NCBI GenBank assembly: GCA_012511175.1
Contig: JAAZGO010000010.1
Span: forward strand, 69,563-133,562
Origin: Fastidiosipila sp.
GTDB taxonomy: Bacteria > Bacillota > Clostridia > Saccharofermentanales > DTU023
Length of the DNA stretch: 64,000 nt
Direction of reading: 5' to 3'
This document shows, one piece after another, positions 1,718-54,262 of this stretch. Numbering within the stretch: position 1 is the stretch's first letter; each line of letters opens with the position of its first letter. The notes beneath the pieces are model-generated. The model searched no databases and was not told where the DNA came from. It saw only the letters and a program-made list of their open reading frames with translations. The position numbers and the translations under genes are program-made.

Positions 1718-3177
1718 GGCAGATCCGTCTCTTCGCTGAACGCGCGGGCCAGGGCGGAAAGGAGCAGCCGTTCCTCCTCCCCGGAAAGGGTTCGCAAGTC
1801 GAACAGGAGGGTATCAAGTGTGGTGCGGCAGAGAATGGGAGGGTCAAAGGCCCGCAGGTTCTGTTCCAGTGAGGAGATTGACCGTGTGCCGGATCTGACC
1901 GCCAGGGCCCAGGAGTGCAAGGGTATTTCCGGCGCCGACCCTCCCCCCATGATGATCTCGGAAGGGATGGCTTCTGCCATGATTCCGTGCCCCGAGAGAG
2001 ACAGAGCGGCTTCTTCCGTTCGCTGGCGGAGCGAATCGTTGTTGTAAAGGACTGAAACAAGCAGGGGGATACGCTCTTTTGCCCGGTCGGGATCCAGGTA
2101 GAGTGCCAAGGTCGCCTCAAGGGCAGCAAGAGTCATCTTGTCACAGCGAAAGGCCCGCATCAAGGGGTGAGCGGTCATTTTCCCCACCAGGTCAGCCCGG
2201 CCCATGAGGATGCCGGCCTGAGGACCTCCCAGGAGCTTGTCACCGGAAAAACAGATCAGGTCCGCGCCGGAGGCAAGGGCTCCACGGACAGTCGGTTCAT
2301 CAGGAAGCAGGGCCGACAGTTCCTCTGAAACAAGGCCGCTCCCCAAGTCATAAATCAAGGGGATCCCATGGCAGCGGGCCAGCTGTGAGAGCTCCGTATC
2401 GCTGACGTCCTCGGTGAAACCTGAAATCCGGAAGTTGCTGCGGTGAACTTTTAGTAGGGCTGCGGTCGAATCACTGATGGCGCGCTCATAGTCGGCCAGG
2501 CGGGTTTTATTGGTGGTGCCAACCTCCCGGAGGATGGCGCCGCTCTCCTCCATGATTTCAGGAACCCTGAATTTCCCCCCGATTTCCACCAGTTCGCCGC
2601 GGGAAACAAGGACCTCCCGGCCCCGGCACAAAGCTGATAGGGCCAGCATGACGGCAGCCGCATTGTTGTTGACCACTGTTGCGGCCTCAACATCAAACAG
2701 GCGGCAGAGCAGGGTTTCCAGGGGAGCTGTTCGTTGACCGCGTCTGTTTTCTGTAAGATCAAACTCCAGCGAGGCATAACCTTCGCTGCAGCGCTGGACG
2801 GCTGCAAGGGCCTCTTTTGCGAGGGGTGCCCGGCCGAGATTGGTGTGGAGGATGGCACCGGTGGCGTTGATGACTTTCCTGATCCCGGGTTTTGATTCGG
2901 TTTCAATTTTCAAAAGAATGGCCCGGAGGAGGACCTCTTCGGACAGCAAGATACTCCCGGCTGCCTGGCAATCTGCCCCAGCTGCTTTTTCAATGTAGGC
3001 AGCGTCAGCAAGGGGATCATCCGCCTTTTTTGTGAGAAAATGGCGTGCGGCCTCGAGGATCCCGCGCACGGCTTCCCTTACCGGATGATAGCCGTTCGAT
3101 TCCCTTGCGGCATCAAGGCGTGAATCACGCAGCAGTTGATCTACTTTCGGCAGGTCACGTGGATTTTCAATGATCAT
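1714..3177 (-). CDS. selA: L-seryl-tRNA(Sec) selenium transferase SelA
   Basis: ORF 1714..3213; SelA-like throughout (INATGAILHTNLGRAP, KVHRSNF, FSGDKLLGGPQAG). Start trimmed to ATG 3177 (MIIENPRDLPKVDQLLRD), which is preceded by GTGAGGAGG RBS. Confidence 0.93.
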   Translation of the reverse strand: MIIENPRDLPKVDQLLRDSRLDAARESNGYHPVREAVRGILEAARHFLTKKADDPLADAAYIEKAAGADCQAAGSILLSEEVLLRAILLKIETESKPGIRKVINATGAILHTNLGRAPLAKEALAAVQRCSEGYASLEFDLTENRRGQRTAPLETLLCRLFDVEAATVVNNNAAAVMLALSALCRGREVLVSRGELVEIGGKFRVPEIMEESGAILREVGTTNKTRLADYERAISDSTAALLKVHRSNFRISGFTEDVSDTELSQLARCHGIPLIYDLGSGLVSEELSALLPDEPTVRGALASGADLICFSGDKLLGGPQAGILMGRADLVGKMTAHPLMRAFRCDKMTLAALEATLALYLDPDRAKERIPLLVSVLYNNDSLRQRTEEAALSLSGHGIMAEAIPSEIIMGGGSAPEIPLHSWALAVRSGTRSISSLEQNLRAFDPPILCRTTLDTLLFDLRTLSGEEERLLLSALARAFSEETDLP

Positions 3178-18726: not shown

Positions 18727-19701
18727 TCAAGCCCGGGTGCCGGGCGCGGAGGGAACGCGAAGGCGGATGGCCTGCTTGATATTATTCAGCTCCCAATCAG
18801 TCCTCGAACCGCCGTACTCTCCGTCAACGGTAAAAGAAACGGGTTCCTTAAACCGGAAAATAATGTCGTGGGCCCGCCGACGGATCATGTCATCACTTGT
18901 TTTCCGCTGGAGGATGCGGGAGACAAGTTTGGCCGTCTGCCCAAGGTTCCGGGGTGGTTTGACCAGCAGAACTTCAAAGAGCCCGTCGTCGAAAACTACA
19001 TCATTCAGCTTAACCAGGCCGCCGACAGAAAAAGAGTTGAGGACGCCTCCAAAGATGTAGCTTCCTGAATAGTCAACTCCGTCGAGCAGGACGGTGGTTT
19101 CATGAGGGCGGATTCGGCCCACTGACTGGAGACCGGTCAGCAGGTAAGCGAAATGACCCAGTGCTTTTTTCAAATGGCGCCGTGTTGCGTAGGAGGTCTC
19201 CGTAAAGGCTCCGAAACTGGCGACATAGGTAAAGTAGGCGGGTAATTGTTCTGGCCTGCTGGGGCTGATGCCCTCCGGCAGGTCGTGGCGGATTTGCGGT
19301 TGACTTCCGTGGACCCGGCCGATGTCGATGGCGAAAGGGATCCCTGCCAGGATGCTGCGTGCTGCCTTCAGGGGCTCGGACGGCAGTTTGAAAGTCCGGG
19401 CCATATCACAGGTCGAACCAATCGGCAGGAAACCGACGTGGGGGGGAAAGCGGAGCCGCATAAGCCCCGAAACAACCTCAGAGAGTGTGCCGTCACCTCC
19501 GCAGGCAACGACAATGTCATGTGCGGGGCCCTGGGTGAATGCAATTTCACGGGCGTCACCGATTCCCGTGGTGAAAACTTCACGGACTGAAGATCCGGCC
19601 TTCCTGAGTTCACCGCAAAGTTTTCCGGCAAGCTCCGATGCGCCGTAGCGGCCGGCATTGGGATTGATGATCACCAGGATGTTTTGACCGACCCCATTCA
19701 T
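18727..19701 (-). CDS. diacylglycerol kinase-family lipid kinase (YegS/DagK type)
   Basis: 324 aa with ILVIINPNAGR and VVACGGDGTLSEV motifs. Confidence 0.85.
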   Translation of the reverse strand: MNGVGQNILVIINPNAGRYGASELAGKLCGELRKAGSSVREVFTTGIGDAREIAFTQGPAHDIVVACGGDGTLSEVVSGLMRLRFPPHVGFLPIGSTCDMARTFKLPSEPLKAARSILAGIPFAIDIGRVHGSQPQIRHDLPEGISPSRPEQLPAYFTYVASFGAFTETSYATRRHLKKALGHFAYLLTGLQSVGRIRPHETTVLLDGVDYSGSYIFGGVLNSFSVGGLVKLNDVVFDDGLFEVLLVKPPRNLGQTAKLVSRILQRKTSDDMIRRRAHDIIFRFKEPVSFTVDGEYGGSRTDWELNNIKQAIRLRVPSAPGTRA

Positions 19702-31173: not shown

Positions 31174-31980
31174 GTGCGCCACAAGCTACTTAGTCGAAGA
31201 CTGAAAGAAGACATGCCGATGATGACGGCACACGACCGATCCGGATCAAAAGTGAATATCGGTCACGCCTGCACTTTGTACGCGGCACGCCGCAGGCGGA
31301 TCTTTCAGCGTTCCCTGACGATCGGCATCCTGATTCTGACCCTTGTTGCCTCCGTGCTGATCTATCTTTACTGGGGTGAGGCAGCCATTGATTTTTTCTC
31401 CGACCCCATCAAGGTTCGCGCCATGGTTTCAAGGCATCCTGTTTCCAGCCGATTGGTTTTCTTTTTGGCCAACTTCATGCAGGTTGTGATCGCCATCATC
31501 CCGGGAGAACCCTTTGAATTGGCGGCAGGCTATGCTTTTGGCGTCGTTGAGGGGACACTGATTTGCATGGCCGCCATCTATGCAGCCAGTATCCTGATTT
31601 TCCTTCTGGTCAAGCGTTTTGGGCGGCCGGTGATCGAATTGTTTTTTGAGCCGGAAAAGATCGACCAGGTCCGCTTGTTCCGAAGACCGGGCCAACTCAA
31701 TATTTTGCTTTACATTCTTCTTTTCCTGCCGGGAACCCCCAAGGACATATTGACCTACCTGGCAGGGCTGACACCGATAAGGCTGTCAAGCTGGCTGATC
31801 ATTATTTCCGCCAGGCTCCTCTCCGTCGTCACATCGACTGTGAGCGGCGGCCTGCTCGGCTCTCAAAATTACATCTATGCGGTTCTTGTTTTCCTTGTCA
31901 CGGGATTGGTCGCGCTTGCGGGTATTCTCATGTACAACAGGCTCAACAGGCGTGCGCAGGAGGAAGAAATGACCGGGTGA
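31174..31980 (+). CDS. TVP38/TMEM64 (DedA-related) family membrane protein
   Basis: 268 aa. Contains the family-typical PGEPFELAAGYAFG motif and several TM spans. Start uncertain. Confidence 0.75.
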   Translation: MRHKLLSRRLKEDMPMMTAHDRSGSKVNIGHACTLYAARRRRIFQRSLTIGILILTLVASVLIYLYWGEAAIDFFSDPIKVRAMVSRHPVSSRLVFFLANFMQVVIAIIPGEPFELAAGYAFGVVEGTLICMAAIYAASILIFLLVKRFGRPVIELFFEPEKIDQVRLFRRPGQLNILLYILLFLPGTPKDILTYLAGLTPIRLSSWLIIISARLLSVVTSTVSGGLLGSQNYIYAVLVFLVTGLVALAGILMYNRLNRRAQEEEMTG

Positions 31981-51047: not shown

Positions 51048-51088
51048 TGCATACCGCCTTATAATTGAGGCGCTCCATCTGTGTATGT

Positions 51089-52099
51089 ATGAAGAATAGA
51101 GGCAGTATGGCGGAACCCAGCGGGCATGTTCTTTGCTCAGCCGACGGGCTGATCCGATTGAAGGATCGGTTGAACAGGATTGACAAGTTGCGTGGCTGGA
51201 GTATCGGCGATTGTCATGCCCGGCAGGTGGAGCGGGACTGCGTTATCTACGAAGCCTTCGACAGGGAGGACCGCCCTCACTGGCTGCTGGCGGGTCCTTG
51301 GCGCGAGTGGCAACGTGTCGCCGATTTATGGGATCATCTTTGCTGGGTAGGCGAAATCGTAGAAAATTCATCCCATATCTTCCGTTTTATGGGAAATATG
51401 GTTCCCGAAATTGTTTGGGAAGGTGTCGAAGAGGGATACGTCGGCTATTCGGAGAAAAGAGAGGCCGCCTCTTTTTTTCAAACCATCACCCTTGCCAATC
51501 CGCCCCGCTTCGAAAATCTGGTCCAGTTAACCGGCTTTTTGCGCCTGCTTCAAACAGGCGAAAATTCTTTTGGAACGGAAGGAAGCGGCCTGATCCTTGC
51601 CGGTGCGGAGTCCCGGGCCATGGACCTTGTGGAGAGTCTTTCGGCGAGAATACCCCAAAAACCTGTATTCAGGAACTGGCAATCATTTTATCTGCAGAAC
51701 GCCCGGAGCATCTCACGATCGGCAAATTTCCGCCTGGCGCTCTCCTTCGGTTCTTATGCCACCCGATGCTTCACCTGTACCGATCGCGGGGCATTGCGGG
51801 TTGATTTGCCCTTTTTCCTCTGTGAAAAGATTGCTGATACGGATTTATGCCGGATCCTGCTTGAAATGCCGGACGCCAGCGTCCAGGATCGCCAGTACCT
51901 GGTCGACCTTTACTTCAATATGGCCATTCCATCCCATTTCTTTACGCTTCTGACGCATCACGCCATGACCTCAATTCTTCAGGATCTGATGAAATCAACG
52001 AAAGGCTCCACGGGTGAACTCCGCAATTTGAATCGCTTCGCCTCCTTGTCGCGTCAGCACGATCTCTTTCGGACTCCCGTTCCCTCATGGTATTTGTAA
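51089..52099 (+). CDS. hypothetical protein (no family recognised)
   Basis: ORF 51065..52099 with coding-like composition. Start is ambiguous (51089 or 51107). No motif I can name. Confidence 0.5.
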   Translation: MKNRGSMAEPSGHVLCSADGLIRLKDRLNRIDKLRGWSIGDCHARQVERDCVIYEAFDREDRPHWLLAGPWREWQRVADLWDHLCWVGEIVENSSHIFRFMGNMVPEIVWEGVEEGYVGYSEKREAASFFQTITLANPPRFENLVQLTGFLRLLQTGENSFGTEGSGLILAGAESRAMDLVESLSARIPQKPVFRNWQSFYLQNARSISRSANFRLALSFGSYATRCFTCTDRGALRVDLPFFLCEKIADTDLCRILLEMPDASVQDRQYLVDLYFNMAIPSHFFTLLTHHAMTSILQDLMKSTKGSTGELRNLNRFASLSRQHDLFRTPVPSWYL

Positions 52100-52272: not shown

Positions 52273-52707
52273 GTGAACGCAGTGAATGGGATCCGCTTTT
52301 TTAGAAGAAAGAATCATATGACGCAAAGTGAACTGGCGGAAGTGCTCGGCGTCACACAAACCTCCGTCAGCCAATGGGAGGGCGGAAGGAACTACCCTGA
52401 TATCAAGACAGCCAAGCGGATGGCTGAAATGTTTGGGGCAACGCTTGATCAAATCCTCGGCGCGGAGGAGATGGATGACGCGCTGCTGAGTCCAGTGGCC
52501 TCCATCTGGCTGGATGATACATGGAACTCCGAAGACGGCGGGGATCTCTTTCCCCTCGAGCAGAAGGCGCGGCTGCTCGCGATCATGAACCGCCTCTCAC
52601 CGCTTGCCCGACAGCGAATCCTGGATCGTGCGGAGATCTATTTGGAGATTGAGACGCTCGACGCCCAAAAGGAGCAGGCCTCGGACAATGAATCTTCAGG
52701 CACATAA
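52273..52707 (+). CDS. XRE-family helix-turn-helix transcriptional regulator
   Basis: HTH_3 pattern RRKNHMTQSELAEVLGVTQTSVSQWEGGRNYPD. GTG start at 52273 or 52282. Confidence 0.8.
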   Translation: MNAVNGIRFFRRKNHMTQSELAEVLGVTQTSVSQWEGGRNYPDIKTAKRMAEMFGATLDQILGAEEMDDALLSPVASIWLDDTWNSEDGGDLFPLEQKARLLAIMNRLSPLARQRILDRAEIYLEIETLDAQKEQASDNESSGT

Positions 52708-52731
52708 ACATTCATTCAGCCCGGATAAATA

Positions 52732-52760
52732 TTGACAGATTTTTGGCGGTGTGCTACGAT
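52732..52760 (+). promoter_or_regulatory. strong sigma-A-type promoter (extended -10) feeding the mnmA leader
   Basis: TTGACA (52732-52737), 17-nt spacer ending in TGc, then TACGAT (52755-52760). Confidence 0.55.
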
Positions 52761-52766
52761 TACCAC

Positions 52767-53173
52767 AACCTCGATTGGATTACATAGACGGGAATGTGCA
52801 TCCGGAAACACCGGATTCACCGGAAAGTTGAAAGTAATCAAACAATGGAGTGTCCCGAGGACCGCGCAAGTGCGTGTGCAGTTGCGGTAGCTGAAGCCAG
52901 GGGTGCGTAACCCTTTCAATTGAAAAAGCAGGCTGACCGCAACAGAAACGCACCAAATCGTATTCTTGGAGCCGGAATCGTTCATGGGGTCGTCTGACTT
53001 TGACCGGCAAAGCGGCCAGGACGGGACAGGAAAGGAGGCGTACTTTGAAAGTACACCTCGGAGGAACGGGCAGTTGATTCCCCGGTCAGATAGGGAATCC
53101 TGCCCGTTTCGTGTTGGCACCTTCCGGAACCGTCAACCTCGACAGGCCGGGCTTTGTTTCCTAGACTGTAAGC
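52767..53173 (+). promoter_or_regulatory. about 400-nt highly structured 5' leader / unclassified cis-regulatory RNA upstream of mnmA
   Basis: There is no credible ORF. Hairpins read directly: 52800-52816 (ATCCGG/CCGGAT); a nested stem at 52870-52953 (GTGCGT..GTTGCGGT...ACCGCAAC..ACGCAC); 53035-53059; and a 16-bp terminator-like hairpin at 53065-53108 followed by TCGTGTT. mnmA has no obvious SD. Confidence 0.45.
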
Positions 53174-54262
53174 ATGGAAAAGAATGGGAAAAAGAATGGC
53201 AGCCCGGAAACTTCCGGCCGCGGTGTCCTGCTGGGTCTTTCCGGCGGCGTTGACAGCGCGGCCGCCGCGATTCTTCTTAAGGGGCAAGGTTGCCATGTCA
53301 CCGCGGTGACATTGAGAACCTGGCAGGAAGACGGGACGGATGGCCCGAGGGTTGAGCGGGCAGTCAACCTGGCCCGGCTGCTTGAAATTCCGCACAGGGT
53401 TGTTGACGCCAGACAGGCCTTTTACGAGCAGGTGGTCCTGCCATTCATGGAAGGCTGGAAGCGCGGCCTGACGCCCAATCCCTGCGTCATGTGCAACCCC
53501 GGCTTCAAATTTGCCTTGATGAGTGAACTGGCGGATGAGCTGGGCATTCAATACCTGGCGACCGGCCATTACGCGCGAATTTTCGAGACCGCCCAGGGGA
53601 TCCGGCTCGGTCGCGCCGGTTGCAGGCGTCACGATCAGAGCTATTTCCTTTACCGGCTCAATTCTTCAATGTTGAGGCGGATTCTTTTCCCCCTTGGGGA
53701 GTTGTCCAAAGAGGACGCGCGCCGGCTGGCGGGTGACTTGCAGGGCCCCCTGTCAGAAGTCAGGGACAGCCAGGACATCTGTTTTATCGAAAAAAACCAG
53801 CTGAAGGCCTTTCTCCGCCGCCAGGGCATGGAAGAGAAAAGTGGGTTTTTTCTCGATCCGGCGGGAGAAGTGATTGGCGAACACAAGGGCAGCTGGCAGT
53901 ATACGATCGGTCAGCGCCGTCATCTTGGACAGTCTTTTGGCAGGCGCATGACCGTGCTTGCCGCGGACCACCTGCTAAATACGGTGACGCTTGGCGGAGA
54001 AGATGAAGCCTTGATGAAGCAAGTCCATTTGGTTGACCTGGTTCTGGCTGATCCCCGGACAGATTCCTTCCGCGCCGAGGTTCAGCTCCGGTCTCAAGGC
54101 AGGCCGCATGGCGCGACAGTTGAGGCAGTACCGGATGCCGGAGAGGCGACCGTCCGCTTTGATATGCCGGTGCGGATCACGGCGCCGGGGCAGTCGGCTG
54201 TATTTTACGATGGCGACCTGGTTTTGGGCGGCGGCCTTGTGGCCGGAATGACTCTGGAATAG
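53174..54262 (+). CDS. mnmA: tRNA 2-thiouridine(34) synthase MnmA
   Basis: 362 aa. It has a PP-loop LLGLSGGVDSAAAA, the catalytic Cys context NPCVMCN, and GHYAR. Confidence 0.92.
   Translation: MEKNGKKNGSPETSGRGVLLGLSGGVDSAAAAILLKGQGCHVTAVTLRTWQEDGTDGPRVERAVNLARLLEIPHRVVDARQAFYEQVVLPFMEGWKRGLTPNPCVMCNPGFKFALMSELADELGIQYLATGHYARIFETAQGIRLGRAGCRRHDQSYFLYRLNSSMLRRILFPLGELSKEDARRLAGDLQGPLSEVRDSQDICFIEKNQLKAFLRRQGMEEKSGFFLDPAGEVIGEHKGSWQYTIGQRRHLGQSFGRRMTVLAADHLLNTVTLGGEDEALMKQVHLVDLVLADPRTDSFRAEVQLRSQGRPHGATVEAVPDAGEATVRFDMPVRITAPGQSAVFYDGDLVLGGGLVAGMTLE

Follow-up and report, generated by a model that had tools for sequence, protein, structure and literature searches.

The question raised by this locus is whether the roughly 400 nucleotides (nt) that precede mnmA (tRNA 2-thiouridylase) in a genome of Fastidiosipila sp. 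are the regulatory leader of that gene or a gene by themselves. We have analyzed a 64-kb stretch of contig JAAZGO010000010.1 (64,000 nt, from here on the window), in which this region sits between a gene of the XRE family and mnmA, with veg, ispE and the gene of a D-tyrosyl-tRNA deacylase located 3' of the latter (coordinates in Table 1). A preliminary description, made from the letters alone, had proposed a structured leader or attenuator of mnmA starting at a near-consensus promoter and ending at a terminator-like hairpin. Our analysis indicates that the region codes for a real, conserved and structured RNA on the + strand, that its structure is supported by covariation and that it belongs to a previously uncatalogued family. 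As to its role, we favor, giving it about an even chance, an independent small RNA, strongly promoted and ended by a terminator, with mnmA expressed separately from a leaderless transcript.

The searches for known families were negative. None of the 4227 models of Rfam 15, which include T-box, riboswitches, RNase P, SRP, 6S, tmRNA, OLE, raiA and ROOL, matched the 64-kb window at the gathering score, in agreement with the preliminary description, which had recognized no known family here. At a permissive threshold (E<=10), positions 52600-53300 gave only four matches at chance level, the best of them to SNORD123 with 19.9 bits against a cut-off of 45. When six homologous loci were searched with Rfam there was nothing on the RNA, the single match being a tRNA located elsewhere, and ARAGORN detected neither tRNA nor tmRNA in the window. 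Viral contigs, phage genomes and plasmids gave no match to the RNA, and an origin in a mobile element was rejected. Literature searches on an RNA motif associated with mnmA and on leaderless mnmA returned nothing relevant.

Homologues were recovered by three routes. The search of a genome collection with mnmA provided one close relative, L001, an uncultured Mageeibacillus genome with the same gene order; homologues of the XRE protein, with their contigs, added further lineages; and a DNA pattern derived from the conserved hairpin retrieved 19 metagenome contigs. We have analyzed 18 distinct homologous sequences (counts of 19 add the near-duplicate L056), and in 18 distinct sequences a covariance model gave full-length matches. 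Group A comprises the window and 10 others, all with the XRE gene upstream, group B consists of L033/L034 and L061, and group C of five sequences of ~322 nt in which an unrelated divergent gene replaces the XRE gene. The source names of the carriers are Fastidiosipila, Saccharofermentanales or Mageeibacillus, i.e., Clostridia of anaerobic digesters, so that the family is so far confined to Fastidiosipila/Mageeibacillus-like Clostridia. In all 18 distinct copies the RNA directly precedes mnmA-veg-ispE and is co-oriented with it, also in the loci that have another upstream neighbor. The XRE gene was also found without the RNA, in L029, L043 and L067, where mnmA is not adjacent to it, and in L031 and L065, where both genes are neighbors, separated in L031 by a short spacer and in L065 by one that contains an AT-rich repeat element of another kind.

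The comparison with L001 delimits the RNA sharply. Identity along the RNA was 87.9%; the XRE gene reached 74.7%, mnmA 71.2% and the spacer that follows the terminator 51.7%. The conserved block begins right after the -10 box and comes to an end immediately behind the last hairpin. A shared open reading frame (ORF) is excluded by three 1-nt indels between both sequences, and a 134-aa ORF on the minus strand had no Pfam match, so the earlier statement that there is no credible ORF was correct; on these data, together with the covariation described below, we have rejected the coding explanations, those based on small ORFs of the plus strand included. A 416-nt stretch folded with z = -2.9, better than all 100 dinucleotide shuffles. 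Aligning the whole family with MAFFT and folding it with RNAalifold gave a poor alignment of the 5' two-thirds and only 27 pairs, and this was replaced by group-wise folding and a covariance model. The structure finally tested, obtained from RNAalifold, has 94 pairs in 13 helices.

We have evaluated this structure over two alignments. In the 11 sequences of group A aligned with MAFFT only, 89.7% of the cells were standard pairs (85.2% in shuffles), 31 pairs showed double changes (15.7 +/- 2.4 in shuffles, none of 500 reaching 31, and 10-16 when the partners were slid), and the covariation score was 0.232 against 0.157. In the 18 sequences aligned to the model the corresponding values were 90.9% against 78.5%, 65 double-change pairs against 31.4 (again none of 500 shuffles reached the observed number, and sliding the partners gave 20-25), and a score of 0.341 against 0.154. 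Being fitted to the model, the second alignment leans toward the structure, a bias that the MAFFT-only result does not have. The preliminary description had suggested a covariation check on homologues, and compensatory changes do keep the helices in the relatives. Besides, there were 89 G-U cells and 35 A-C cells (about 2.5:1), an excess that favors the + strand. Conservation is distributed very unevenly: the linker, the hairpin that we call P7 and the stem of the terminator are nearly invariant, and the junction domain with its multi-helix core drifts with compensation.

Table 1. Features of the mnmA-associated RNA, its flanking genes and related promoter-like sites (positions in the window).
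Feature	Position	Strand	Remarks
RNA promoter	52732..52760	+	-35 TTGACA 52732-52737, 17-nt spacer, TG 52752-53, -10 TACGAT 52755-52760
Structured RNA	52767..53115	+	inferred start to terminator end, ~345-350 nt; conservation boundaries vs L001
5' hairpin domain (P1)	52770..52850	+	helices 1-4: CUC/GAG, UUGGAUUAC/GUAAUCAAA, GAC/GUU, apical GUG.AUCCGG/CCGGAU.CAC
Three-way-junction domain	52851..53028	+	helices 5-6; closed by UGUCCC (52851-56)/GGGACA (53023-28) and GACCGC (52860-65)/GCGGCC
Long arm	52870..52951	+	helices 7-9: GUGC/GCAC-type stem, GUUGCGG..GCUG/CAGGC..CCGCA, apical hairpin GGGGU-GCGU-AACCC; the nested element of the preliminary description
Second arm	52971..53008	+	helices 10-11: GCCGG/CCGGC enclosing GGGGUC-GUCU-GACUUU; 10-nt asymmetric internal loop
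Linker	53029..53038	+	GGAAAGGAGG; purine-rich, Shine-Dalgarno-like, nearly invariant
Hairpin P7	53035..53059	+	GAGGCGUAC-UUUGAAA-GUACACCUC; almost invariant sequence, 97% paired
Possible mini-ORF	53045..53077	+	10 codons; UUG in P7 loop, 5-7 nt after GGAGG; stop inside terminator 5' arm; status uncertain
Terminator-like hairpin	53063..53118	+	stem 53063-53110, GGAACGGGCAG..GAUUCCC/GGGAAUC..CUGCCCGUUUC, 18 pairs; U-rich tail UUUCGUGUUGG
mnmA promoter	53139..53176	+	TCGACA-17-TAGACT, then ATG 6 nt after -10; promoter score 9/12
XRE-family helix-turn-helix gene	52273..52707	+	Pfam HTH_3, E = 4e-13; upstream neighbor of the RNA in groups A and B only
mnmA (tRNA 2-thiouridylase)	53174..54262	+	Pfam tRNA_Me_trans, E = 9e-55, plus M and C domains; adjoins the RNA
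Gene with -10-like hexamer 6 nt before start	18727-19701	-	TATGAT-actggc-ATG; no Shine-Dalgarno
Gene with -10-like hexamer 6 nt before start	31174-31980	+	TGgTAGAAT-gacatc-GTG; no Shine-Dalgarno

The promoter of the RNA is invariant in the family. All 19 family sequences have a perfect TTGACA, a spacer of 17 nt (18 in one of them), a TAnnnT hexamer and a fixed distance to a conserved AACCUC, always on the + strand, and 13 of the 19 carry the TGn of an extended -10. In the window the promoter TTGACA-17-TGcTACGAT of the preliminary description scored 10 of 12, with the extended -10 present, and has an A/T-rich stretch (ATAAATA) just upstream.

The 5' domains change their sequence and keep their pairs. 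In P1, the apical helix shows double changes in eight of its nine pairs, the AUUG/CAAU of group A is replaced by CUUG/CAAG in group C, and GAUUAC/GUAAUC by GAUGCCAU/AUGGCAU in group B. The stem that closes the junction, UGUCCC/GGGACA, is replaced in group B by GCCUC/GAGGC and in group C by GAGUCCGCG/CGCGAGACU, with double changes in all six pairs over the 18 sequences. Double changes affect 12 of the 20 pairs of the long arm within group A alone, and 8 of the 11 pairs of the second arm, which is 94-98% paired in the 18-sequence alignment. Among the helices that had been proposed before, the 6-bp hairpin at 52800-52816 and the hairpin at 53035-53059 were found again, as were the nested helices at 52870-52953, with the exception of the innermost AGCC/GGCT, which is not a conserved pairing; the conserved one joins GCUG (52890-93) with CAGGC (52929-33).

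The 3' module has little variation to offer. GGAGG is present in 18 of the 19 sequences, and the only radical change of P7 was found in L035, where an unrelated and fully paired hairpin, GACAUGCC-GGCU-GGCGUGUC, takes its place. The reverse complement of P7 (53059-53035, minus strand) was also flagged as a terminator-like site, an effect of the hairpin being nearly palindromic. The stem of the last hairpin is conserved and 95-96% paired. The preliminary description had seen this long terminator-like hairpin correctly; it extends over 53063-53110, is followed by TTTCGTGTT and lies 64 nt from the ATG of mnmA instead of the approximately 65 given before. By reading of the alignment, all family members have 5-8 U in the 10 nt after CUGCCYG, in most cases interrupted. 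A clean U-run (TTTTTATTATT) was found only in L054, where the terminator scanner flagged it.

A second, conserved promoter motif lies between this hairpin and mnmA. In 15 of 18 lineages the distance from its -10 to the start codon is exactly 6 nt. Eight lineages of group A share TCGACA-17/18-TAnAAT, then N6 and ATG or GTG, and group C has TGcTAAAGT-N6-ATG, with L027 and L059 similar. There is an in-frame stop inside the mnmA -10, and hence the start codon cannot lie further upstream. The mnmA mRNA is thus probably leaderless, the A of the ATG being its first base, and this would explain why mnmA has no Shine-Dalgarno sequence. This absence, already noticed in the preliminary description, was corroborated here (one is found close to a candidate start in 32 of the 40 long ORFs of the window). 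The leaderless arrangement, again lacking a Shine-Dalgarno, recurs in two further genes of the window (Table 1), suggesting that leaderless genes may be common in this Fastidiosipila sp.

Some details of the start of mnmA were observed along the way. The first ~20 codons (53174-53240 in the window, and the homologues) vary among lineages and are rich in AAA, AAG, GAA and CAA, which are those decoded by MnmA-modified tRNAs. In L060, ~55-135 nt after the terminator, the position of the GTG with which the L001 mnmA starts is occupied in the alignment by GTA, and there is no canonical start codon from the in-frame stop to the PP-loop motif; a pseudogene, an error or a non-canonical start may account for this. 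The preliminary description had also pointed out the 9-mer CAACCTCGA at both ends of the region. The repeat is real (three matches in the window for 0.54 expected) and its second copy is at 53134, as described; the first one starts at 52766 and not at 52772. As a functional pair it was rejected, since the second copy coincides with the -35 region of the mnmA promoter, and relatives share only CTCGA or nothing.

If the region is indeed an independent RNA gene, the near-perfect housekeeping promoter would fire at ~52767, and the transcript would fold into the 5' hairpin domain and the three-way-junction domain, followed by the exposed linker, P7 and the long GC-rich hairpin, whose U-rich tail would end it at ~53112-53118. 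A different promoter, located 25 nt beyond, would drive mnmA as a separate transcript. The working surface, for which a protein or the ribosome is the likeliest counterpart, would be the invariant 3' module formed by linker, P7 and terminator stem, with the variable 5' domains as a scaffold. Besides, the terminator would protect the mnmA promoter, the weaker of the two, from the strong one located upstream. From the sequences we infer termination at the hairpin, the leaderless mnmA and the function of the 3' module as working surface. Two other functions for an independent RNA were tried and rejected. For antisense pairing with the 5' end of mnmA, the duplex energies of cognate combinations were no better than those of non-cognate ones, and for a protein sponge of the CsrB/RsmZ type, the counts of GGA were 9-16 for 7-10.6 expected (z mostly 0.2 to 2).

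Several observations weigh against this reading. The strict linkage of the RNA to mnmA in all 18 sequences fits a role in cis, although it rests on only a few independent rearrangements. In L037/L049 there are only ~24 nt from the terminator to the ATG, with no recognizable -35, and mnmA may depend there on read-through. The U-tract that follows the 53063-53110 hairpin in the window is interrupted (UUUCGUGUU), and termination may therefore be incomplete. Both transcription starts and the 3' end of the RNA are predicted from the sequence.

The first alternative is that of the preliminary description, a leader acting in cis, in which the folded domain would bind a ligand, a tRNA or MnmA itself and set the passage of transcription through 53063-53110 into mnmA, the promoter next to the gene supplying only basal expression. 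We consider it possible but rather unlikely. The linkage and shared orientation hold across three divergent subgroups, the multi-helix domain supported by covariation has the size of a riboswitch or a T-box, the RNA ends in a terminator-like hairpin, and in L037/L049 this hairpin is close to the ATG without a recognizable -35. However, in the nascent-transcript folds of the 19 sequences the 5' arm of the terminator was unpaired or involved in trivial, non-homologous pairs, and no conserved antiterminator was predicted. The lack of a Shine-Dalgarno implies that an internal AUG would be poorly translated on a read-through transcript, and the promoter next to mnmA is conserved at the leaderless distance. 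The spacing speaks against a leader as well. RNA and mnmA are 790 nt apart in L054, with the terminator and the mnmA promoter both intact and the gap containing an oppositely oriented ORF for a hydrophobic, membrane-like product of 78 aa (2920-3156, minus strand), and L034 has a gap of 250 nt. Finally, the T-box and all riboswitch models gave no match, and the nucleotides of the junction vary when the terminator stem is invariant. An invariant terminator and P7 over a drifting core reads as the reverse of the pattern of riboswitches, which have an invariant sensing core and a variable expression platform. On these grounds, i.e., the promoter of mnmA, the lack of a conserved antiterminator, the gap in L054 and the invariant 3' module, the leader or attenuator of the preliminary description was not supported.

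Less probable still is that the RNA is read by ribosomes. The possible mini-ORF is present with constant length in 18 of the 19 sequences, ending in UGA or UAG, and is absent in L035. The speed of its decoding could be coupled to the formation of the terminator, and hence to read-through and occlusion of the mnmA promoter, resulting in a feedback on the level of 2-thiouridine in tRNA. What makes this idea attractive is the constant combination, in 18 of the 19 sequences, of GGAGG, a spacer of 5-7 nt, a UUG start, 10 codons in every case and a stop, a second codon that is always Lys or Glu (AAA in nine sequences, AAG in one and GAA in eight), codons read by MnmA-modified tRNAs, and the mnmA promoter just downstream of the terminator in most lineages. 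Nevertheless, L035 retains the whole RNA without the mini-ORF. A second codon for Lys or Glu equals R-A-R at the positions of the loop and is weak evidence. The invariant codons are the 3' arm of P7, so a constraint at the level of the RNA explains most of the conservation of the mini-ORF, and codons 6, 7, 8 and 10 change their amino acid freely. Besides, the Shine-Dalgarno-like sequence is paired inside P7, the 270-nt folded domain is left without explanation, and ribosome-coupled attenuation is rare in Firmicutes. Taken together, this makes such a sensor quite improbable.

In a broader form, the RNA would report the modification state of tRNA-Lys/Glu/Gln and tune the expression of mnmA from the adjacent leaderless promoter, something that we regard as a long shot. 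Sensing could be carried out by ribosomes decoding the mini-ORF or by the R-A-R loop of P7 pairing directly with the Lys/Glu/Gln anticodons, and the action could be exerted by read-through across the mnmA promoter or by the binding of MnmA. If true, it would be without known precedent as an RNA device that senses tRNA modification. A different possibility, P7 as a mimic of the Lys/Glu/Gln anticodon loop, was rejected by inspection, since the fixed GUAC/GUAC register gives the loop UUUGAAA, whose anticodon would be UGA or UGG.

The last explanation, that the conservation reflects protein coding (the 134-aa minus-strand or the small plus-strand ORFs) or an element at the DNA level such as an operator or the end of a mobile element, could invoke the 137-aa minus-strand gene that gene callers put over the homologous region in L040-L042, the XRE-type regulator gene next door and the 9-mer at both ends of the region, and is hardly credible when the indels between the closest relatives break the frame, neither reading as an ORF matches Pfam, the compensatory changes and the G-U excess are signatures of RNA, the 9-mer is not kept in relatives, the phage, plasmid and viral collections gave no match and the surrounding genes are syntenic housekeeping genes.

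Some features of the neighborhood can be mentioned in addition. The window contains a 344-aa ORF without Pfam match (51065-52099, plus strand), and nearly all the related loci keep a similar ORF (330-353 aa, without recorded domain) in this position, ahead of the XRE gene. The AT-rich element in the XRE-mnmA spacer of L065 (2915-3380) contains 'aaagtgtaaattttgac' units in direct and inverted orientation, and an intergenic region of L029 (4560-4700) has three tandem copies of a 42-nt unit (attgatcaaagagccgtggtgctggattagccgcagaaaag). In L059 a tRNA-Thr(GGU) gene (915-990) is found ~310 nt upstream of the RNA.

Orphan large structured RNAs are among the closest parallels. OLE, the raiA motif, ROOL and GOLLD are also long multi-helix RNAs supported by covariation in genomes of the Firmicutes type, with their own promoter and terminator (the terminator being a predicted one in the present family) and without known function. 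Their Rfam models gave no match here, and the RNA described here, with ~345 nt, is smaller than OLE, ROOL and GOLLD, has a much narrower known range (one clade of anaerobic-digester Clostridia) and has its most conserved part in the 3' hairpin/terminator module. Small-RNA genes with a fixed place beside a protein gene have precedents in 6S RNA (ssrS), upstream of ygfA, and in tmRNA, next to smpB. In both cases, as would be the case here, a strongly promoted stable RNA gene is kept beside one protein gene without being its leader. The RNA differs from 6S in lacking a single long hairpin with a central bubble, and from tmRNA in that ARAGORN finds none.

The similarity to regulatory leaders is partial. 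Riboswitch and T-box leaders share with the RNA a folded domain and a GC-rich hairpin with a U-rich tail, upstream of a co-oriented metabolic or tRNA-related gene. The differences are the absence of a model match and of a predicted antiterminator, a downstream gene with a promoter of its own and without a Shine-Dalgarno, and a terminator, and not a sensing core, as the most conserved part. SR1/SR1P is a dual-function small RNA, and the trp and his leaders are leader-peptide attenuators. Their short ORF with a Shine-Dalgarno, placed within a structured RNA and overlapping the terminator arm, resembles the possible mini-ORF; in the family described here one member lacks this ORF, the pairing of the RNA accounts for its conservation and no alternative hairpins were found.

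This family, with ~345 nt and 13 helices, is a well-supported addition to the few large bacterial RNAs that have no assigned function, and its carriers are uncultured Clostridia common in anaerobic digesters. The nearly invariant 3' module and the fixed place beside mnmA are starting points for experiments. What looked like the leader of mnmA is not needed to explain the expression of this gene, which is apparently one among several leaderless genes of the genome. Should the link to tRNA thiolation be functional, it would represent a new kind of regulation for tRNA-modification enzymes.

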